DNA from: a virus
Lineage: Duplodnaviria > Heunggongvirae > Uroviricota > Caudoviricetes
IMG/VR virus record: IMGVR_UViG_2671180338_000008
Span: 1-9,979 of that record
DNA length: 9,979 nt
Strand: one strand, 5' to 3'
Positions within the stretch are counted from its first letter, which is position 1, and every line of letters begins with the position of its first letter. Below, piece by piece: positions 1 through 9,979 of this stretch. The notes under the pieces were generated by a model. That model saw nothing but the letters and a program-made list of their open reading frames with translations. It was not told the DNA's origin and ran no database searches. The translations under genes were made by a program, and so were the position numbers.

Positions 1-414
1 CGTAAGTAAAATCAGCCACCCACAGCTGGTCAGGACGTTCTGCCACGAACTGACGGTTTACGCGGTCACCTGCGGCAACGGTTTTCCGGCTGACGGTAGT
101 GCGGACCTTTTTACCCCGGAGAACACCGACAAGTCCCATAACCGCCATGAGGCGCGCCACTGTACATCTGGCCACCCTGATTCCTTCCCGTAACAACTGG
201 CGCCAGACTTTACGCACACCGTACACCTGATGATTTTCATCGTATACGCGCTGTATCTCTCTCTTCAGCCAGTCATCGTGCTGCGCACGGGCACTGCGTT
301 TATCAGGATGATGTCCTGTTGCTAACAGTGGTAATACGTTGACGGGGCAATATGCAGTTCACTGCATACCGGTCCGACCCCGTACTGCCCACGCAGCTTA
401 TCCAGCAGTGGCAT
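1..414 (-). pseudogene. IS629-like transposase OrfB, partial (runs off window) and disrupted
   Basis: ATG at 412-414 overlaps the orfA stop (TAATG). Reads MPLLDKLRGQYGVGPVCSELHIAPSTYYHC then an in-frame TAG at 322-324 (CAG Gln expected). A 1-nt frame change near 316-318 precedes the conserved frame resuming as GHHPDKRSARAQHDDWLKREIQRVYDENHQVYG... Confidence 0.6.
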
Positions 415-739
415 TATTTTTTCCAGAGGCGGTCGAACTCCGCCTTCGCAAAATAAGCGGAAGCCTGGCGAAGGATATCGTTACTGCGGCGCAGTTCACG
501 ATTTTCACGCTCCAGCTCTTTCAGACGCTGACGTTCAGCGGTGGTGAGCCCTCCATCACCGCCCCCGGTATCCCGCTCATGCTGGCGAACCCAGACACGC
601 AGAGTCTCCGGTGTACAGCCAATCTTTGGAGTAATGGAACAAATTACCGCCCATTGTGAGTCATATTCGCCCTGACTTTCCAGAACCATACGGACTGCCC
701 GTTGACGGACTTCGGGGGAAAACGAGTATTTTTAGTCAT
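414..739 (-). pseudogene. IS629-like transposase OrfA, frameshifted after codon 7
   Basis: ATG at 737-739 with GAGG about 9 nt upstream. The conserved OrfA frame (ORF 414-689, starting MVLESQ...) is +1 relative to this ATG after a T4C5 homopolymer run (plus-strand G5 714-718, A4 719-722). From the ATG the frame reads [15 protein letters not shown]... and terminates early. The intact element is remembered as having one more T in this run. Confidence 0.6.
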
Positions 740-768
740 CCTGTTTACCTCTTTCTCAGGGAGTTTAG

Positions 769-793
769 TCTCCAGGATTCCCGGGGCGGTTCA
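769..793 (-). repeat. Left terminal inverted repeat of the IS629-like element (approximate extent)
   Basis: Element-strand sequence TGAACCGCCCCGGGAATCCTGGAGA... begins at 793. Followed by a GAGG Shine-Dalgarno and the orfA ATG at 737-739. The exact IR length is not determinable without the right end. Confidence 0.6.
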
Positions 794-1696
794 TTATCTA
801 AAAAAGCTGAAAGCCTTAGCTCAGGAAAAATTACGATTGGAACAAAAGAAAAAGTAATCATTATTAATGAGTTAAGGCAATGTCATCCATTATCACAATT
901 ACTGGTTATCGCGGATTTGCCACGTAGTACATTTTACTATCACGTGAAACGCCTTAATGCGCCAGATCCATATCAACTTGTTAAACAAGTAATATTGAGA
1001 ATATACCATCAGCATAAAGGGCGTTATGGTTATCGACGCATCAGACTTGCCTGCCGTAACGAGGGCATTTTACTTAATGGTAAAACCATCAGAAAGTTAA
1101 TGAAGGAACTGGGTATCAGCTCACTTATCAGGCGCAAGAAGTACCGTGCCTATCGTGGAGAACAGGGGCGAACTTGTAATAATTTACTGAAGAGACAATT
1201 TTATGCTGACCGCCCAAATCAAAAGTGGGTAACAGATGTCACAGAGTTTAAGGTCGATGGCAGGAAGCTCTATTTATCACCAATCATGGACCTGTATAAT
1301 GGAGAAATAGTCTCATATAACCTTACTGAGCGCCCATTAGCATCAATGGTAAAGAGCATGCTATTAGATGCGGTAGAACAACTCAATAAAGACGATAAGC
1401 CCTTGTTGCATAGTGATCAGGGGTGGCAATATCAGATGCCTCGTTGGCAACGTTGGTTGAGTGATAATGGCATAACACAAAGCATGTCCCGACGTGGTAA
1501 CTGCTTAGATAATGCAGCAATGGAAAGCTTTTTTAGTACTTTAAAATAAGAATGTTACTACCTAAATAAATACAATAAGTTACATCATCTAAAGCAAGAT
1601 ATAATTGATTACATTGAATACTACAATCACCATCGCATTAAAGAGAAACTCGATGGCATGAGTCCGGTTCAATATCGACTTAAACATTTTTCATAG
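794..1696 (+). pseudogene. IS150-like transposase OrfB (integrase core) with an in-frame TAA
   Basis: Single frame through the conserved transposase core, interrupted by TAA at 1547-1549 (FFSTLK*ECYYLNKY...), after which the same frame continues to the natural stop TAG at 1694-1696 (...HHRIKEKLDGMSPVQYRLKHFS). No own start is present in the window. Confidence 0.7.
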
Positions 1697-1723
1697 GATG
1701 TCCAAGATTTGGGGCGCAGATCA
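794..1723 (+). mobile_element. IS3-family (IS150-group-like) insertion sequence remnant, 5' end displaced by the IS629-like insertion
   Basis: Starts exactly at the IS629-like terminus. 795-857 encodes an OrfA C-terminal leucine-zipper tail (YLKKLKALAQEKLRLEQKKK*) containing an A AAA AAG slippery motif. It is followed by an OrfB with DDE-transposase hallmarks (RSTFYYHVKRL, GRYGYRRI, LHSDQGWQYQ, SMSRRGNCLDNAAMESFF, MSPVQYR). The putative right terminus GTCCAAGATTTGGGGCGCAGATCA at 1700-1723 ends in CA; this IR assignment is tentative. About 40% GC, distinct from the phage module. Confidence 0.7.
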
Positions 1724-1787
1724 TTTGAAAAGGTGGGCACCTACGTTACCAATACTGGCTTAATGGCTACATACGGCAGTCGGTTTA

Positions 1788-1829
1788 CGCTTACCTCCGT
1801 TAACGCTTACCTCCGTTAACGCTTACCTT
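1788..1829. repeat. 16-bp tandem direct repeat, about 2.6 copies (CGCTTACCTCCGTTAA)
   Basis: Read directly: CGCTTACCTCCGTTAA at 1788-1803 and 1804-1819, then CGCTTACCTT at 1820-1829. Lies in the unassigned segment downstream of the IS150-like end. Confidence 0.8.
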
Positions 1830-1973
1830 TAATCTGCTGAATTTCGAATTGTTCAGGAGTAATAGTCCAAAGTATCGGGAATTTTCCAGACAATCCTGAT
1901 AATACGCTTATGAACATTACAACACGCTCATGCGGAACCTGGATGGGGGAAGGAACGGTGAAGCTGTTAGCGA

Positions 1974-2003
1974 ATGACCGGCGTTTGTATAAACGCCGGT
2001 CAT
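1974..2003. repeat. Perfect 13-bp-arm inverted repeat with a 4-nt loop (ATGACCGGCGTTT GTAT AAACGCCGGTCAT)
   Basis: Read directly. No U-tract follows on either strand, so it is not a canonical intrinsic terminator. It sits about 50 nt downstream of the stop of the minus-strand 96-codon ORF. Confidence 0.8.
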
Positions 2004-2053
2004 GATGAATGATATTTCAGAATATACCTCGGGCTAAAATACCGGGACAGAGA

Positions 2054-2344
2054 TCAGGCGTGATTAATCTGCAGCATTTTTAATAACAGAAGTACTGAGC
2101 TTACTTTACCTTTGATGATGTAATAGTTATTTCCGTCGGTACTCATTTTTCCCTGAAATAATGTCACGGATGTTTCTTCCTGCTGATCCTGCAGGCGCAG
2201 TCGTAAGGTCATATTTTTAATGAGCTGAGATCCGGGTGGCAAGGGGTATTTGCTGTCAGATACTGGGCGACTGAGTCTGATGTGGCGCGTATACAGCCCG
2301 TTTTCGTACAGGGTGGCCTCTGTTATGGTGTCAGTGACCAGCAT
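2054..2344 (-). CDS. Hypothetical protein (96 aa), possibly a 5'-truncated gene remnant abutting IS1
   Basis: ORF MLVTDTITEATLYENGLYTRHIRL...LKMLQINHA. Its ATG (2342-2344) lies 3 bp from the IS1 end and in the same frame as insB, 6 codons after the insB stop. No recognisable family and no clear Shine-Dalgarno. Confidence 0.3.
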   Translation of the reverse strand: MLVTDTITEATLYENGLYTRHIRLSRPVSDSKYPLPPGSQLIKNMTLRLRLQDQQEETSVTLFQGKMSTDGNNYYIIKGKVSSVLLLLKMLQINHA

Positions 2345-2362
2345 GTGGGTAATGACTCCAAC

Positions 2363-2866
2363 TTATTGATAGTGTTTTATGTTCAGATAATGCCCGATGA
2401 CTTTGTCATGCAGCTCCACCGATTTTGAGAACGACAGCGACTTCCGTCCCAGCCGTGCCAGGTGCTGCCTCAGATTCAGGTTATGCCGCTCAATTCGCTG
2501 CGTATATCGCTTGCTGATTACGTGCAGCTTTCCCTTCAGGCGGGATTCATACAGCGGCCAGCCATCCGTCATCCATATCACCACGTCAAAGGGTGACAGC
2601 AGGCTCATAAGACGCCCCAGCGTCGCCATAGTGCGTTCACCGAATACGTGCGCAACAACCGTCTTCCGGAGACTGTCATACGCGTAAAACAGCCAGCGCT
2701 GGCGCGATTTAGCCCCGACATAGCCCCACTGTTCGTCCATTTCCGCGCAGACGATGACGTCACTGCCCGGCTGTATGCGCGAGGTTACCGACTGCGGCCT
2801 GAGTTTTTTAAGTGACGTAAAATCGTGTTGAGGCCAACGCCCATAATGCGTGCAGTTGCCCGGCAT
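2363..2866 (-). CDS. insB: IS1 InsB reading frame (expressed as the InsAB' fusion by programmed -1 frameshifting)
   Basis: 167-aa translation [27 protein letters not shown]...[15 protein letters not shown]. Stop TAA at 2363-2365 lies inside the terminal repeat. Confidence 0.9.
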
Positions 2867-3060
2867 CCAACGCCATTCATGGCCATATCAATGATTTTCT
2901 GGTGCGTACCGGGTTGAGAAGCGGTGTAAGTGAACTGCAGTTGCCATGTTTTACGGCAGTGAGAGCAGAGATAGCGCTGATGTCCGGCAGTGCTTTTGCC
3001 GTTACGCACCACCCCGTCAGTAGCTGAACAGGAGGGACAGCTGATAGAAACAGAAGCCAC
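2785..3060 (-). CDS. insA: IS1 InsA (transposition repressor / N-terminal part of the InsAB' transposase)
   Basis: 91-aa translation [43 protein letters not shown]...LKNSGRSR starting at GTG 3058-3060; zinc-finger CxxC...CxxC motif. Confidence 0.9.
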
Positions 3061-3130
3061 TGGAGCACCTCAAAAACACCATCATACACTAAATCAGTAA
3101 GTTGGCAGCATCACCTCATTCGTCTGTTCC

Positions 3131-3637
3131 TTAAATCTTCCAGGAAATTTCTGCATTGCCGTCAGCATCACCGGCACCTGTGAATTCAGCGTTGGTCAGC
3201 ACCACGTTTTTGCCACTGACTGACGTGGACATGAATCCACCCAGCGGCACTTTGATGGATTCATCAGTGGAGACGACAACGTATACCGGATCGCCTTTTT
3301 TGATAGTGCTGGCATCAAAATCAGAACCGAGATTAACGGTCACGTAGCCACGCTTCATGGCGTCGCCCGGGAAGTTCTTGCCTGTTCCCACCTGGCGAAC
3401 CATGTCCGGCTGCGACGTGGTCGGATAAGGGCGCACGTAGATCCCCTTCACCTTGTCTGCGGTATCACCATCTGCCAGCGGCACGAAAAAACCGTCATCA
3501 TCGTATTTACCAGCCAGGCCATAGGCAGCGAAGGCGTTATCGGATTTAAGGACCACCGGTTCGACGGTTAAGTCCTGCGGGCGAGAGACAGCCCCGGCAA
3601 TGCCAACAGGCATCCGGTACAGAAATACATTATTCAT
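3131..3637 (-). CDS. Phage protein of unknown function (168 aa), last gene of the head module before IS1
   Basis: ATG 3635-3637 with AAGGG about 7 nt upstream, 3 nt after the stop of the upstream gene. Stop TAA 3131-3133 lies only 15 bp from the IS1 terminus. Beta-rich, Gly/Asp/Val-rich composition suggests a structural protein; no family recognised. Confidence 0.5.
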   Translation of the reverse strand: MNNVFLYRMPVGIAGAVSRPQDLTVEPVVLKSDNAFAAYGLAGKYDDDGFFVPLADGDTADKVKGIYVRPYPTTSQPDMVRQVGTGKNFPGDAMKRGYVTVNLGSDFDASTIKKGDPVYVVVSTDESIKVPLGGFMSTSVSGKNVVLTNAEFTGAGDADGNAEISWKI

Positions 3638-3640
3638 TTT

Positions 3641-4861
3641 TTACCCTTTACGGTTTGCCCAGAATTCAGCGTTTTGTTTGTTCAGGGAAGCGATACTGGT
3701 CATGCCCATGTTTAGGCGCTGTGCATCGCCGGTGGTGGCGCGGGTGTTTCGCCCTTTGGCAACCTCAGACACGGCATTAAACGCCATGTCGACCGATTGT
3801 TTCGGTAATTTGCGGATATCCGCATCACCGACTATCTGGCGAACCAGCGTTTTGTCAGCAGAAGCCAGAACCTCGCGTTTGAACGCGGTCGGTTTCATCT
3901 TACGGCTCAGATCGATACCCGGAACGATAACTTCGGCACGCCAGGCTGAGTCACCAGTAATCGTGGTTTCCTCTTCATCGTCCTCGCCGTCACCGGTCGG
4001 ATTATCGTCAGGCTTATTATCGTTATCGCCCGTGGCATTTCTTTCCAGCTTAGCCAGCAGGGCTTTCAGTAATGTTTTGAGGTCATCATCACTGTCGCCG
4101 GTTGGATCTCCGCCCATCTCTGGTGCTTTGTCCGGTAGTGGTTGCTGCGGGGACAGGTTGATGTTGAGATTAACGCCCTGCGGCAAATCCCCCTCATCTC
4201 CTGTAACCGATGCGGGAGCCGACTCCACCAGTTCGTTCATGGTGTCGGCATCTCCTGTCTTGATGGCCGCACGCATGCGGTTCCACCAGTTTTTCTTTTG
4301 ATTTGCCATTGTGTCTCTGTCTCCAATTGCACAACGATTTCCGGCTCTGCCTTTAGGGACAAGAGCCACATGGTTTCCGGTAATATCGACCTGCTCGGCT
4401 TTACCTGGCTCGGTCTGCTCGTACTCCGCGTCATAGCCGCACGACACTTCGCGCAGGCCATCTTCGATAAGCTGAATGGCGCTTTCGTCTTTGACGATAA
4501 GGTCAGCCAGCATCAAATCAGACTGCTCACCCGTCCCGCGCCGGACATTCTGGAGGTGCCCGACAGCAAGCTCTTTCCAGTTCTCGGGATTTACCAGCCG
4601 CACATTCCCGTTTTCATCTTCAGGATGCAGGATCGTGATGCTCATCCCTTCGAATGAGGCAAGCGTGGCCGGATGGAATACCTGCTCAGGAGAACGCGTG
4701 ACGACTATTTCACCGAACTTATCGGGTTTCAGTTTTGGCAGGTCATCAGCACCATAGAGCTGCTTACCTGTTCGTCCTATCGGCACGTCTTTGCACAGCA
4801 ACGAGCCGTCAGCCAGGCGGTATCGGGTTTCCCCGAGCCTGGTCTCAAAAAAGTATTTCAT
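3641..4861 (-). CDS. Phage head-maturation protein: N-terminal DUF2213/XkdF-like putative prohead protease domain with a C-terminal acidic scaffold-like region (406 aa)
   Basis: N-terminal motifs FHPATLASFEGMSITILHPE, REVSCGYD and GNHVALVPKGRAG resemble the DUF2213 family (recalled, not searched). The C-terminal half is acidic and low-complexity (TGDSDDDL, DNDNKPDDNPTGDGEDDEEE) with a coiled-coil-like LKTLLKALLAKLERN. An internal in-frame ATG at 4307-4309 is preceded by GGAGA. Gene starts 3 nt after the Mu-F-like gene stop. Confidence 0.55.
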   Translation of the reverse strand: MKYFFETRLGETRYRLADGSLLCKDVPIGRTGKQLYGADDLPKLKPDKFGEIVVTRSPEQVFHPATLASFEGMSITILHPEDENGNVRLVNPENWKELAVGHLQNVRRGTGEQSDLMLADLIVKDESAIQLIEDGLREVSCGYDAEYEQTEPGKAEQVDITGNHVALVPKGRAGNRCAIGDRDTMANQKKNWWNRMRAAIKTGDADTMNELVESAPASVTGDEGDLPQGVNLNINLSPQQPLPDKAPEMGGDPTGDSDDDLKTLLKALLAKLERNATGDNDNKPDDNPTGDGEDDEEETTITGDSAWRAEVIVPGIDLSRKMKPTAFKREVLASADKTLVRQIVGDADIRKLPKQSVDMAFNAVSEVAKGRNTRATTGDAQRLNMGMTSIASLNKQNAEFWANRKG

Positions 4862-4864
4862 GGG

Positions 4865-5647
4865 TTATGCTGCCCTTTTCATTGCGAATGGAACGCGAAC
4901 AAACACGATCTCTTTATAGCAGCGGCAGTTTGGCAGCTCGCCCGCGTGGCCGGTCATGCCGTCCAAAGTTGGAGGTGAATCCCAGCGGACGAATTTACCT
5001 TTCATGTGATCGTGGGAATCTCGGACATCGCCATCATCGGCTGTACGCCAAATATAACCATCCGAGCCAATAGCTATCGCTCGGGCCATATCCAGCGCGC
5101 CCGTTGCTCTTCCCAGTTCCGTTCGGGCAATCAGATCGGCCCTAGACTTAGCAACATCGCCGGTAGATGCAATCTCTTTAGCAAACTGCTCCGCCCGACC
5201 ACCGGTGACAACAGCCTCTATCGCTTTGTTCTGGATGTCGTACACCCTGTCTGCGGCCTCGAGAGGCAGAGATTTGATGTACTTGACCTGTTCGGCGATG
5301 ATGGATTGCATCACCTGGCCCACAGGAGCGCTTTCCACAAGATTGCGGAGCTCGCGACTGATGTTCTTGCTGTGTTGCCGCCAAACTTTCTCGTTCTGCC
5401 GGGTTAGGTCCGCAGTAAAGTTTTCCGCGACCTTTGTCGCCCAGGGGGTGATGATTTCACTGTAACGCTCCAGCGCCGCAATAATTTCCGTGATACTGTC
5501 ATTTGAACCATCGTAGCGACCATTTACGATGTCTCCGACCGCCCTCGCTATCCTGCGTAGGCTGGTTCGATACCGGATTTCCGCCTGACGGCTCCTGCGG
5601 TTCGTCATCAGGTTCGCCGATGCCGGGCGGCGCTTCATCTTCGGCAT
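4865..5647 (-). CDS. Phage head morphogenesis protein, Mu F / SPP1 gp7-like (260 aa)
   Basis: Motifs typical of the Phage_Mu_F domain: RTELGRATG, DVRDSHDHM, GHAGELPNCRCY. ATG at 5645-5647 with GAGGA 8 nt upstream. The start is uncertain (alternative ATGs at 5636-5638 and 5606-5608), and any of them overlaps the portal 3' end by more than 100 nt. Confidence 0.7.
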   Translation of the reverse strand: MPKMKRRPASANLMTNRRSRQAEIRYRTSLRRIARAVGDIVNGRYDGSNDSITEIIAALERYSEIITPWATKVAENFTADLTRQNEKVWRQHSKNISRELRNLVESAPVGQVMQSIIAEQVKYIKSLPLEAADRVYDIQNKAIEAVVTGGRAEQFAKEIASTGDVAKSRADLIARTELGRATGALDMARAIAIGSDGYIWRTADDGDVRDSHDHMKGKFVRWDSPPTLDGMTGHAGELPNCRCYKEIVFVRVPFAMKRAA

Positions 5648-6965
5648 TCTCGATGTCCTCGTCGGTAATGGATGCCCCGATGCCGGTTACGTCAGAATTT
5701 TCTCGCAAATCAGTCATAGCGGCTTTCAGTGTCATCAGACCATCACCCAGCGCCGTACTGATTGCGTTGGTGGTGTTTAACGCCACCGTTGAGCGATCGA
5801 CATCAGACATTTGCCAGAGCGGGTTAAACTCAAACGTGAAATCGTCCGGCAGCGGCTTGCCAAGTTCCGAACGATGCATGATGTCCAGTATCCGCCGCAC
5901 CGGAAGACGTAAACGCCTCTCCTGCAACGAACTGATGCGATCGTAATAGTTGGCAAGGTCTGCATCACCGGTAGAAAATCCTTTCGGGGACTGTCCGAAC
6001 AACCGCACCAGTGGGATACCAACAGCGCCACTAATCTGTTCTACAAACTGCGAAAGGATGTCATCCAGACCACTGAAGCTGTACTGATGGGTTTCAAACT
6101 TATCCCGCGAGTCCATGAGCGTCATGCCTTCATTACTCTGGAACTGTCGAATCAGGTCGATATTCTTCAGCAACGCTTCATACGCAGGACCACCAAGTGC
6201 GATAAGCTCGCGTAGCTTCTCCACGCTGTAGGTACGCAAATGCGCCTTGTAGACCAGCTGCGCCGCGCCGACAGTAGCGCTGTCGAACGCGGTAAGACGA
6301 TCCCAGATACGCTCTACAACCGACATTCCCCATTCGTTCTCGGTCATCTTCTGCTGAAATGGCAACGTGACGCCATCAAAGCGAATCAGGCGACTGTGAT
6401 GAATGCGCCAGGCAGGAATTCCCGTTGCTGTGGTCACCACATCGTAAAACTCAGGTTTACCCAGGTCCGGCCCCATATCTTTAATGCGGCGGGTCAGTGC
6501 CGGGTCGACCATCCAGCGGTCGAGCGGGAGAATCCCCTTAAACTTGCCCTTACCGATGGTTTCGGGTCGCAGCGGGGTCATTGGTGCCTACCCCTCAATC
6601 ATGATGAAACCCACCGCGCCGCCGTAGAGGCGCGACCATTTCAGCACGTCATTCAGCGCATCCCAGATTTGCAACTCATCCAGTTGTGATTCGAGAATGC
6701 CACGATCTTTTGCATCAATTTCCGAAGTGATGCGAATGCCTTTGCGGGTCATATCATCCGGGATAGCATCGACTGCTTCGCCGATGATCTAGGATGAACG
6801 ATAGGACCATTCCACCAGCATGCGGTTACGACTGGTGAAATTAGCCCGGTAGGTGGATGCTGAGTGCTGGTTAGGTGTCTGCATCCCTACGCGGGCAATA
6901 AAATTCTCATAACCATCAGCTGTGGCCTGCACAGTTCGCCGCAGGGCTTGTTTGTTTCGTGCCAT
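5499..6965 (-). pseudogene. Phage portal protein gene interrupted by two in-frame amber (TAG) codons
   Basis: One continuous frame. ATG 6963-6965 overlaps the large-terminase stop (TGA 6965-6967) by 1 nt. Reads MARNKQALRRTVQATADGYENFIARVGMQTPNQHSASTYRANFTSRNRMLVEWSYRSS, TAG at 6789-6791, IIGEAVDAIPDDMTRKGIRITSEIDAKDRGILESQLDELQIWDALNDVLKWSRLYGGAVGFIMIEG, TAG at 6588-6590, then APMTPLRPETIGKG... for 360 more codons to TGA 5499-5501. Size (~487 codons) and position after the terminase fit a portal. Confidence 0.8.
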
Positions 6966-8368
6966 CAGGCCTGTCTCCCCAGCTGTTCCCAGATATCCAG
7001 CGATGTATCGATTGGCGCGAAGGCCATAATGAATGCATCAGCAACGTTTGGTGACGGTATCTCGCGTTTTGCGAGGTCTTTTTTACTTTCGACCATCACA
7101 CGTCCGTTACGGTCGAAATCACGATGAGGTGTTGTCAGTTCCAGTTTCAGCTTTTCAAGCAACGGACAACGAGAATCTATGCTGATCAGCTCATCCACAG
7201 GATACTGTTCTCCGTTGTTAATGGCGTTAAACGTATTTCTGAAACGGTCAGCCACCAGCCACCATGCCTGAGCCTTAAGATTTGCGAAAAAGTCTTTGTT
7301 GGGGATGCCGTTGTACTCGTCATCTGGCTCATGCACACCAGCACCGGCGTTAAACCTCTGGTAATTCACACGTCGCGCGTATGCGTTCTCGCTCTTCCGG
7401 TCAGCGTTAATTTCAGAGAATTTAGCACCGGCAGACGCACCAACACCGATAGAGTCGTAAACAATATCTGCTTCACGCTCCAGCGCCGCCTGATAAGTAC
7501 GCTGGCAGCTCTTCAGTAATTCATCTTCTTTGGCCTTCCATTCGTCGGCCCAGAAAACAACGGATCCGTGACGGTAAACGTTAGCGCACTTATCTGTACC
7601 ACTGTCAGCCACGTCAAAGCCAATACGCTTTCTTCCACTGGGTTCGAAATTTAACGTTTTGTGCGCATCCACTGCGGCTTCTATCCAAGACAGTTTGATG
7701 ATTGCCGCATCATCATCAGACTCCGGAACGCCCTCATACACATGTTTAAAACCATCCGGATCACGGCGTCGCGCCGCGTCGATAACCTTAAGCATGGTGT
7801 CAGACAGAAACGGATTTTCGTCATAGTTAATTTTGCGGATGAGAGTGCCTTCGGGCGGATCAACAACGAAGTTGCGCCAGACGAAATCAGTAACAAGTCC
7901 GGGGTTGAATATGAACCAGCATTCCGAACCCTCTTTACGGATCGTTGGCTCCAGAATTTTCCACTGGTATTCCGTCAGTGCGTGGGCTTCTTCCAGCCAC
8001 AACACATCGATCCCCTCCAGTGACTTAATTTCTTCGATGTTGCGCCATAATCCATAAAAAACAAATTCCGAGCCAGTAACCCGGTTAATGATTTTGTTGT
8101 TCAGAATACGGAAACGGTGCCGCAGACCAAACCTGTCTATCTGAATTTTGAGCAGGGTATACACCGACTCTTCGATTTTATTCTGGATCTGACGGGCACA
8201 ACAAAAACGCAGGGTGTATTTATTCGACAGAAATATGGCAATGCCAGCGGCATCCCATGATTTTGACGATGACCGACCACCATAAAGCACTTTGTTACGT
8301 GCCCGCATAGTCCAGAAACTACGTAAAGCCGGATTCAGCGTCGGTTTGGATGTCAGAGTAGAAGTCAT
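6965..8368 (-). CDS. Phage terminase large subunit (Terminase_3 / PBSX-type), about 467 aa
   Basis: N-terminal NPALRSFW...ARNKVLYGGRSSSKS (Walker A P-loop), then WLEEAH (Walker B-like) and a C-terminal nuclease-like region. Start chosen at ATG 8366-8368 (MTSTLTSKPTLNPALRSFW...) with GGAGAG 10 nt upstream. The ORF-track start at 8476 is a TTG far upstream and unlikely. Alternative ATGs at 8384-8386 and 8393-8395. Confidence 0.85.
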   Translation of the reverse strand: MTSTLTSKPTLNPALRSFWTMRARNKVLYGGRSSSKSWDAAGIAIFLSNKYTLRFCCARQIQNKIEESVYTLLKIQIDRFGLRHRFRILNNKIINRVTGSEFVFYGLWRNIEEIKSLEGIDVLWLEEAHALTEYQWKILEPTIRKEGSECWFIFNPGLVTDFVWRNFVVDPPEGTLIRKINYDENPFLSDTMLKVIDAARRRDPDGFKHVYEGVPESDDDAAIIKLSWIEAAVDAHKTLNFEPSGRKRIGFDVADSGTDKCANVYRHGSVVFWADEWKAKEDELLKSCQRTYQAALEREADIVYDSIGVGASAGAKFSEINADRKSENAYARRVNYQRFNAGAGVHEPDDEYNGIPNKDFFANLKAQAWWLVADRFRNTFNAINNGEQYPVDELISIDSRCPLLEKLKLELTTPHRDFDRNGRVMVESKKDLAKREIPSPNVADAFIMAFAPIDTSLDIWEQLGRQA

Positions 8369-9083
8369 TGAGGTCACGCTCTCCATTGCCATCATCAATA
8401 CCTGCATCACGGCGAAGACGATCAGCCTCCAGAGACACCTTATCAGTGGCGGCCTTGCGGTAGGCTGTATCAGCAAATATTTTTCCTACCGTCGCAAGCG
8501 TGCCAACGATGGACTCAATACGAACTGTATTGCGCATCATTGCTTTCTCGGCGGCGCTGATATTTTCAATCAGCATCTTCCTTTCCTGGTCCCCATTAGC
8601 ATCTTCCAGCGACACCAACCACCGACCAATATTCTCTGCAGCGACAAGGTTGTTAGCACGAAGGCGAAATAATTCGTCCTCGAGCGTCAACGCTTTAGCG
8701 TCCTCTATCACCTCATCTTTGAGCAGAAGGCGACGGGCATAACCACCGTGTTTTAATGCCTGCTGGTTACCGGGTTGGAATGGGTTAGTCGGGGGATCGG
8801 TACGCATTCCGCGTATCGGTTTCGTATCCGGTGTAGATTCTGTTTTTAGTTGCGTACTTTTTTGTGTAAGGCCAGTAATGGCAGGCTTTCTGCTGGTACG
8901 CACTTTCCTTTTTTGCGTACCATTTTTGCAAACCTGCGTACCGCCACTGCGTGCCCAACCAAGCTTTTTGGCCCTCTTCCTGATAGCCCCTTCTGTAACG
9001 CCGTATTTCTCGCCTATATCACGGAGGCTAAGGACTCCGGCCCGGTATGCCGATTCGATGGCCTCCCAGTCCGGTTTTGCCAT
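8319..9083 (-). CDS. Phage terminase small subunit (254 aa)
   Basis: ATG 9081-9083 with AGGAAG 7 nt upstream. N-terminal HTH-like segment (LSLRDIGEKYGVTEGAIRKRAKKLGW) typical of small terminase DNA-binding domains. Sits immediately upstream of the large terminase; its 3' end overlaps the chosen terL start by 50 nt. Confidence 0.8.
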   Translation of the reverse strand: MAKPDWEAIESAYRAGVLSLRDIGEKYGVTEGAIRKRAKKLGWARSGGTQVCKNGTQKRKVRTSRKPAITGLTQKSTQLKTESTPDTKPIRGMRTDPPTNPFQPGNQQALKHGGYARRLLLKDEVIEDAKALTLEDELFRLRANNLVAAENIGRWLVSLEDANGDQERKMLIENISAAEKAMMRNTVRIESIVGTLATVGKIFADTAYRKAATDKVSLEADRLRRDAGIDDGNGERDLNDFYSDIQTDAESGFT

Positions 9084-9280
9084 GATTATGCTTCCTGTGA
9101 TTTACTGTTATCGCTGCCTGTCACAATAGGTTGCTTTAATTCTTCCTCATCACTCACTCCTGCGACGCTCCGTGGCAGGGCCCCCCACAGGAGTACCTTG
9201 TAAATGTAAGGTGTTTAAGCCTAAATTAAGTCGTATCACGGTTAAATAGCAAAGAAAAATTCACAGAAGGAAAGACATTG

Positions 9281-9790
9281 ATGGAGTGGATAAATGCTTT
9301 GATGAACTATTTTGTACTTCATCCATATCGCCTATGGGGGCTTCTTTTTATAATAGCGTTCACAAAATCCACTTTACTCATTTCGGCGATATTGCCACCA
9401 GCATCAATTATGATGGCCACTGTAATTACAGTCAGCAAGACGACTCTTTCACCATGGGAAGCTGGAATCACGGTCATGAGTGGCGCATGGTGCGGTACTA
9501 TCGTTAATTACCATCTTGGTATAATAATTGGGCATATCCCTCAACTTGCATGTATAATATCAAGCCGTTCCAATACAATAGAACGGGTTCGCCTTCAGTT
9601 GCAAAATAACTCTGTGTCAATACTTTTCACTTCGCGCTTTATCGCCGTGCTGCGTTATATTGCTCCTTTGGTGGCAGGAATGTTGCAACTTCATCCAGTG
9701 AAAGTGTATACAGTGAGTCTGATTTCAGCTGCTAGCTGGTCAGCACTTTATGTTGGTAGTTTTAGCTTCGTGTTGCCTTTTTTTAGCTAA
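9281..9790 (+). CDS. Small inner-membrane protein, DedA/YqaA-like (about 169 aa)
   Basis: Hydrophobic segments throughout; weak resemblance to the COG1238/YqaA family (...GTIVNYHLG..., ...VLRYIAPLVAG...), recalled from memory. ATG at 9281 preceded by AAGGAAAG; the track ORF starts at TTG 9278. About 40% GC, unlike the adjacent phage module. Confidence 0.5.
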   Translation: MEWINALMNYFVLHPYRLWGLLFIIAFTKSTLLISAILPPASIMMATVITVSKTTLSPWEAGITVMSGAWCGTIVNYHLGIIIGHIPQLACIISSRSNTIERVRLQLQNNSVSILFTSRFIAVLRYIAPLVAGMLQLHPVKVYTVSLISAASWSALYVGSFSFVLPFFS

Positions 9791-9878
9791 ACTGCCCATA
9801 AAAAGCTCTTGCGAATCCAGCTTCCCCCATTCCTCTGACAACAGAATCTGATTTGAAGGATAATGAGTAAAATTACCG

Positions 9879-9979
9879 CTACCCCCCAAGGCATTGGATC
9901 CTGATGTACTCCTGAAGCATTCTCAATGCTGTCTGGTCGCTGATGATTCCGTCCCGGATACCGAGAACGTTTCGTCCAG
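9879..9979 (-). CDS. Possible 3' end of a gene entering from beyond the right edge (partial)
   Basis: Minus-strand frame open from the window edge reads ...GRNVLGIRDGIISDQTALRMLQEYIRIQCLGG* with stop TAG at 9879-9881. A second frame is also open through this region, so the assignment is weak. Confidence 0.25.
   Translation of the reverse strand, partial: GRNVLGIRDGIISDQTALRMLQEYIRIQCLGG

Follow-up and report, generated by a model that had tools for sequence, protein, structure and literature searches.

The portal gene of a prophage remnant in Shigella sonnei is a pseudogene of family PF06381 (Phage_portal_3/DUF1073), interrupted by two in-frame amber codons, and not a working member of that family. 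The window analyzed here, a stretch of 9,979 nucleotides (IMG/VR record IMGVR_UViG_2671180338_000008, Caudoviricetes), derives from a S. sonnei chromosome and contains the remnant of a temperate phage. We are highly confident that the stops reflect ordinary gene decay, that is, a nonsense pseudogene in a S. sonnei prophage remnant truncated by an insertion sequence (IS), rather than recoding or error. Nonsense decay of a defective prophage was among the readings put forward in a first-pass annotation, and it is borne out by the derived state of both TAG codons together with an IS1 cut at the start of the major capsid gene.

Reading frame, identity and ancestry of the portal gene

The portal pseudogene occupies positions 5499–6965 on the minus strand (488 codons plus stop, with two TAGs). 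Translated from 6965 to 5499, the region forms a single frame of 489 codons, composed of 486 sense codons, two TAGs and a terminal TGA (5501–5499); intact homologues have 488 sense codons. The amber codons stand at codon 59 (6789–6791, minus strand) and codon 126 (6588–6590, minus strand), and the translation contains no other internal stop. The frame is kept far better than chance allows, and the earlier description of a portal frame with two TAGs that is otherwise intact was confirmed by translation. With TAG at these two codons, no uninterrupted frame covers the whole portal, and the list of open reading frames (ORFs) breaks it into three pieces at 6789–6965 (58 aa), 6588–6752 (54 aa) and 5499–6581 (360 aa). 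Upstream lies the intact large terminase gene (PBSX family, Terminase_3; 6965–8368, minus strand). Its overlap with the portal gene had been given as ATGA and needed correction: the TGA stop of the terminase and the ATG of the portal share one base (cTGATGg, with TGA at 6967–6965 and ATG at 6965–6963), and the same one-base overlap is found in annotated relatives.

That the gene is a portal, as had been proposed, is confirmed by its family match and by homology to solved portals. For this comparison, the ancestral protein was restored from the closest intact portal copy, and the HMM gathering score (33.8 for PF06381) served as the threshold for family membership. The restored protein scored 355 bits (E = 3.3e-106, residues 55–402), and the 54-aa and 360-aa fragments carry precomputed PF06381 matches. 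Among solved structures, it matched the portals of Pam3 (8hds, E = 2.2e-37) and E217 (gp19, 8fvh, E = 1.1e-14), as well as portals 9jlf and 9l01 (E about 1e-22). The Pam3 and E217 portals show clear sequence homology to that of the window, but they are distant relatives; in Pam3, a Trp and a Gln align with ancestral Trp59 and Gln126. Unlike either of these portals, the protein of the window cannot be made full-length.

Gene position agrees with the assignment, the portal lying directly downstream of the large terminase gene and inside a head-morphogenesis module. The order terL, portal, Mu F-like, DUF2213 and cement protein is found both here and in relatives. The Mu F-like head morphogenesis gene (4865–5608, minus strand) is open and overlaps the 3' end of the portal gene by 110 nt in another frame. 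The DUF2213 head gene (3641–4861, minus strand; ORF list, relatives and profile match) and the gene for a cement or minor capsid protein (Gp24/XM1 gp53 type; 3131–3637, minus strand) are both intact. The head module of the window resembles that of Salmonella phage SEN34, the resemblance comprising terminase, portal and head genes.

In a collection of 5426 complete E. coli genomes, the portal gene was present in 382, and over most of its length in 338. The closest intact copies belong to the E. coli prophages FDAARGOS_943, FDAARGOS_944 and VL40 (protein WP_000113499.1, 488 aa). They align with the window over 1467 bases without gaps at 99.8% identity, leaving three differences: TGG (Trp59) to TAG through G to A at window position 6790, CAG (Gln126) to TAG through C to T at position 6590, and GCA (Ala308) to GTA (Val; codon at 6042–6044, minus strand), the last being common to 8/8 S. 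sonnei loci examined. All three are G:C to A:T transitions. The codons TGG, CAG and GCA are present not only in these three prophages but also in the prophage of E. coli 8178 (97.8% identity), in phage vB_EcoM-689R2 and in S. flexneri SFBU1023/E. coli ECMA0423. Salmonella phage SEN34 likewise has TGG and CAG, with the Ala encoded as GCC. Trp and Gln also occupy codons 59 and 126 in a Citrobacter phage. Both residues are kept in all eight intact homologues read.

The TAG59 and TAG126 alleles were searched for in the 5426 complete E. coli genomes with 30-nt queries, every 28-base seed of which spanned the mutated base, and neither was found there; nor was the TAG59 allele found in an exact search of GTDB species representatives. 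A degenerate search around codon 126 returned four genomes, two of which, with near-identical portals, have CAG and TGG. Because the closest and the more distant homologues carry TGG and CAG and the TAG alleles are absent from the E. coli collection, both TAGs are shown, by comparison with these homologues, to be derived through single-base changes. The first-pass annotation had asked which residues the TAGs replaced, and the alignment gives Trp (TGG) at codon 59 and Gln (CAG) at codon 126.

The portal stands in the same place as that of the window in the prophages encoding WP_000113499.1, in vB_EcoM-689R2 and in SEN34 (Brunovirus). In those relatives, it follows the large terminase gene and precedes the Mu F-like, DUF2213, cement and major capsid genes. 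Portal identity to the window is 99.8% for the E. coli prophages, 97% for the vB_EcoM phages and 84% for SEN34. Both vB_EcoM-689R2, an isolated phage, and SEN34 are functional phages with an open portal gene of 488 codons. Whereas the intact relatives have Trp59, Gln126, Ala308 and the capsid and later genes, the window reads TAG, TAG and Val at these codons, and everything from the capsid gene onward is absent. A naturally split portal, which the first-pass annotation had named as a refuting outcome, was rejected: every intact homologue read, including SEN34 and vB_EcoM-689R2, has one 488-codon ORF, and in none does the protein end at codon 59 or 126.

Recurrence in Shigella sonnei and truncation by IS1

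Exact copies of the 58-, 54- and 360-aa fragments are present on at least 1000 public contigs for each fragment, with listings in about 2600–2760 blocks of the collection. The names attached to the exact fragments are S. sonnei and include UniProt Q3Z426_SHISS for the 360-aa ORF. Across the 1467-nt portal region, 8/8 S. sonnei assemblies compared are identical to the window, and 12 S. sonnei assemblies show 0–1 differences from it over the 6864-nt prophage part. We give virtually no credence to the view that faulty sequencing or assembly of this single record produced the TAGs. Nothing was found in its favor, both TAGs being single-base differences from close relatives, and the identical fragments come from independent projects that include finished genomes. 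The exact fragments on at least 1000 contigs each and the identical portal in eight assemblies rule such error out, and these matches assign the window to S. sonnei. The lesions are real and fixed in the clonal S. sonnei lineage. Of the three readings between which the first-pass annotation did not choose, decay stands, error falls to this breadth of identical contigs and suppression found no support.

The element is defective well beyond its portal gene. Between window positions 9979 and 3116, the sequence is similar to intact prophages, and this similarity ends at 3116, on the fourth base of the major capsid gene (DUF2184). Only the first four bases of that gene, ATGA, remain (3116–3119, minus strand), directly adjoined by the terminal repeat of IS1. 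Junction mapping places window position 3116 at position 8985 of L002, where the capsid gene starts at position 8982. The capsid gene from its fifth base, together with everything downstream in intact relatives, is missing and replaced by the IS1 copy that truncates the prophage (2348–3115). The same IS1 junction occurs in all other S. sonnei assemblies examined, and beyond IS1 these carry non-phage-looking genes (lactonase, LysR, aconitase-family and pectinesterase domains). Upstream, other S. sonnei loci have IS3-family genes that overlap the holin gene call and, farther out, an IS110-family element. The element therefore carries independent inactivating lesions besides the stops, namely the IS1-associated capsid loss and, in those other loci, the IS3-family and IS110-family insertions. 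This prophage remnant cannot make particles. The earlier statement that the element as written yields no full-length portal was right but understated, as the capsid gene and all genes after it are also missing.

Shigella pseudogenes formed by nonsense mutations and IS insertions are a feature of reductive evolution. The remnant shares the same kinds of lesions, with stops, IS1 and IS3-family insertions and deletions in a non-essential element of a clonal pathogen. Nothing of note sets it apart from the usual Shigella pseudogenes, although the proportion of stops, two of the three substitutions, is slightly high. The portal pseudogene is ordinary in this respect, and its fragments are already annotated in public genomes; a literature search on this remnant found nothing specific. 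The S. sonnei entries of 58, 54 and 360 aa that are named "putative bacteriophage proteins" are parts of a single portal pseudogene; they should be joined and marked accordingly. Beyond correct annotation, the importance of the case is small.

Readthrough and the 360-aa open reading frame

A different reading is that the host still makes some full-length portal, the two stops being read through with a natural amber suppressor tRNA or because of their sequence context. In its favor, the frame continues unbroken before and after each TAG, and the terminase gene and three head genes have stayed open. However, with only three changes in 1467 nt, recency explains the intact frame, and a full-length portal would be of no use in an element that lacks the capsid gene and all genes after it. 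No relative has TAG at codon 59 or 126. ARAGORN detected no tRNA in the window. In two S. sonnei loci, covered to 10 kb on either side of the 360-aa ORF, a scan turned up a single tRNA, whose anticodon is CAT, and none with CUA. The tRNA arrays of related intact prophages comprise Ile/Met(CAT), Arg(TCT), Thr(TGT) and Val or Gly, without a CUA anticodon.

Recoding would also be expected to leave in-frame TAGs in many genes, with relatives having them too; no such pattern was seen. The other genes of the window contain no in-frame TAG, the terminase, Mu F-like, DUF2213, cement-protein and DedA genes all being open. An Rfam search returned only an ALIL pseudoknot in an IS element. Judged from the window and the two S. 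sonnei loci scanned, suppression of the TAGs appears very unlikely, and production of full-length portal by any form of readthrough seems extremely so.

Ordinary decay also leaves a long ORF behind. The 360-aa C-terminal ORF (5499–6581, minus strand) starts at an ATG located 7 nt past TAG126 and preceded at a distance of 9 nt by GAGGGG, and is publicly annotated as a separate "putative bacteriophage protein" (the UniProt entry named above). Translation might reinitiate here after TAG126, yielding a fragment with a retained or gained function; a truncated portal subunit could, for example, poison head assembly of related superinfecting phages. The spacing of the ATG and GAGGGG, the unchanged state of the ORF in every S. 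sonnei assembly examined and an ORF of equal length in S. dysenteriae all speak for such a function. Against this, the clonality of S. sonnei makes invariance uninformative, the whole remnant showing only 0–1 differences. Furthermore, the Shine–Dalgarno–ATG arrangement exists in the intact genes too, since only the C of CAG has changed, and the copy in S. dysenteriae Sd197, which has four private amino-acid changes among its 360 residues, looks like decay. A retained or gained function is very doubtful on this evidence.

The S. dysenteriae copies and some rare contigs complicate the history of the gene. In S. dysenteriae Sd197 and 1617, the 360-aa ORF begins at Met129 and has ancestral Ala308 along with four amino-acid changes of its own, and in S. 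dysenteriae 155-74 a 360-aa ORF has a fully ancestral sequence. The ORFs of Sd197 (genome CP000034) and 155-74 have the accessions ABB62211.1 and EGI96254.1, respectively. Exact look-up in Logan returned a 125-aa ORF with Trp59 that ends at codon 125 (three contigs), a 417-aa ORF from Met72 to the end with Gln126 and Ala308 (one contig) and an intact 488-aa protein with Val308 (one contig). The 125-aa and 417-aa ORFs each look like a haplotype with only one of the two ambers. Taken at face value, these haplotypes would fit no single simple mutation order, and the rare contigs may be chimeric.

We consider it rather unlikely that portal knock-outs of this prophage type arose more than once, or spread, among Shigella lineages. 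Should S. dysenteriae share the codon-126 stop, either a portal-defective prophage would have moved between lineages or the gene would have been disabled in parallel. Parallel loss, if true, would suggest either that disarming of head assembly was selected for or that the site is hypermutable. Sharing of the codon-126 stop would bear on how defective prophages of Shigella are inherited or repeatedly disabled.

Origin of the two stops

The portal gene gained two independent G:C to A:T mutations, Trp59 to TAG and Gln126 to TAG, plus Ala308Val, and all three changes are now fixed in clonal S. sonnei. Translation from the native start ends after 58 residues. As this lies ahead of almost all of the portal domain (residues 55–402), no portal ring can form.

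In the 6864 nt of the S. sonnei remnant, comparison with the two nearest intact prophages reveals seven lineage-specific substitutions; 6/7 are G:C to A:T, the commonest class of spontaneous mutation in E. coli. A signature of chemical mutagenesis or hypermutation was considered and dropped, seven substitutions in 6.9 kb being too few. Outside the portal gene, three of the four substitutions are synonymous and one changes Ser to Asn; inside it, all three are non-synonymous. Depending on the assumed spectrum, nonsense changes make up 3.5%–6.2% of possible substitutions in the ancestral gene. The probability of at least two nonsense changes among the three in the portal is about 0.5–1%, and that of at least two among all seven in the remnant is about 3–6%.

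These figures bear on whether the portal knock-outs were selected, for instance if disabling head assembly of an inducible prophage stops lytic killing, or through another form of domestication. The three non-synonymous portal substitutions, two of them stops, set against mostly synonymous ones elsewhere, and the low probability of two nonsense changes among three (about 0.005–0.01) would favor selection. The S. dysenteriae ORF starting from the same Met129 suggests an upstream lesion there too. However, the second stop adds nothing after the first, a portal knock-out does not prevent lysis and one of the stops lies at a mutational hot spot. The counts are also tiny and chosen after the fact, and Fisher's test of 0 synonymous to 3 non-synonymous substitutions against 3 to 1 gave a one-sided p of about 0.11. 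Selection is improbable in our estimation. The nonsense excess is a weak hint at something beyond neutral drift, since the probability over seven substitutions is only 3–6%, the case was picked for its oddness and one stop falls at a known hot spot. We infer that the changes were neutral rather than selected.

Mutational context separates the two stops. The codon-59 change most likely arose by 5-methylcytosine deamination at a Dcm site (6789–6793, minus strand), which reads CCTGG in intact relatives and CCTAG here. In the ancestral context TCC TGG ATC, the base opposite the mutated G is the inner, methylated C on the bottom strand. CCWGG sites are documented hot spots of G:C to A:T mutation in E. 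coli (PMC13250602). The portal gene contains three of them, and a change at 2/6 methylated positions would give TAG; among the seven lineage-specific substitutions, only that at codon 59 hits a Dcm position (1/7). Codon 126 (context GGG CAG GCA) lies outside any Dcm site, and its change is an ordinary C to T transition. That both stops are TAG is unremarkable, because 57% of the G:C to A:T nonsense routes in the portal gene end in TAG. Coulondre et al. reportedly described lacI amber hot spots at Dcm sites (CCWGG) of E. coli in 1978. Codon 59 resembles these in having a G:C to A:T change at a methylated position that leads to TAG, unlike codon 126, and would make a neat case from nature of an amber mutation at a site of Dcm methylation.

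Possible downstream start site and portal haplotypes

The second in-frame amber codon of the portal gene (TAG126) is followed seven bases later by an ATG, and a GAGGGG stands nine bases upstream of that ATG (window 6581..6597, minus strand). This makes reinitiation, yielding a 360-aa C-terminal portal fragment, conceivable. The same GAGGGG-ATG arrangement is found in intact portal genes also, so it is probably fortuitous.

Shigella dysenteriae likewise has a portal fragment of 360 aa that begins at this methionine, Met129; it occurs in strains Sd197 and 1617 (ORF P0003) and in strain 155-74 (ORF P0061). These fragments carry the ancestral Ala308, and the Sd197 copy has four additional amino-acid changes. 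Exact-sequence look-up with a set of haplotype proteins (P0046, P0062, and P0063) recovered three further forms, all rare in Logan contigs: an ORF of 125 aa that has Trp59 and runs to codon 125, one of 417 aa that begins at Met72 and has Gln126, and an uninterrupted 488-aa portal carrying Val308. These seemingly intermediate haplotypes, set beside the forms seen in S. sonnei and S. dysenteriae, do not fit any single order of mutations. The rare haplotypes may have arisen through recurrent mutation, as recombinants, or as chimeric assemblies.

Substitutions, relatives, and annotation

Among the seven S. sonnei-specific substitutions in window 3116..9979, identified relative to the nearest intact prophage loci (L002 and L003), six were G:C to A:T transitions, and only the codon-59 change fell at a Dcm-methylated position.

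The prophage of E. coli FDAARGOS_943 (L001, locus 2397..7236) has an intact portal gene, an IS2 within the large terminase gene, and an internal stop in its Mu F-like gene. It is a close E. coli relative decaying by a different route from the remnant in the window. Upstream of the lysis genes, intact relatives carry an array of four tRNA genes (L002, 444..751; L003, 53..363), namely Ile/Met-CAT, Arg-TCT, Thr-TGT, and Val-TAC or Gly-TCC. When two S. sonnei loci were scanned for array tRNAs, a single one was present in L008 and none was found in L005; in these loci the array region is taken up by IS elements.

Some RefSeq records label the portal family of the window "anti-CBASS protein Acb1 family protein". 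Pfam and solved structures identify the same family as portal. The RefSeq name looks like an annotation artefact.

IS1 junction and left flank

An IS1 copy of 768 bp (2348..3115) adjoins the fourth base of the prophage major capsid gene, of which ATGA is the sole remainder at the IS1 edge (window 2348..3119 region). This junction was common to all S. sonnei assemblies examined. Three features lie to the left of IS1, in window 1..2347. On the minus strand there is a remnant of IS629 type with an ALIL frameshift pseudoknot (343..459), and the plus strand has a transposase ORF of the IS3 family (656..1549). The third is a hypothetical gene of which only the end is present (2054..2344, minus strand); in E. 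coli this gene adjoins the sat autotransporter toxin gene. At this place, the S. sonnei assemblies used for comparison instead have chromosomal genes that are pgl-like. Because the left flank differs from that of other S. sonnei and includes a gene adjacent to sat in E. coli, this strain seems to carry a rearrangement, mediated by IS1, by which the remnant became joined to the flank of a pathogenicity island.

Other genes of the remnant

A 254-aa ORF (8319..9083, minus strand) immediately precedes the large terminase gene and shares 50 nt with it. A Pfam search with this ORF gave no match; its position suggests that it may encode the small terminase subunit. Between the lysis and terminase genes, but in the opposite orientation, stands a gene for a DedA/VTT-domain membrane protein (WP_011069285.1; 9278..9790, plus strand). 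It is present in all close relatives and appears to be prophage cargo (a "moron" gene).
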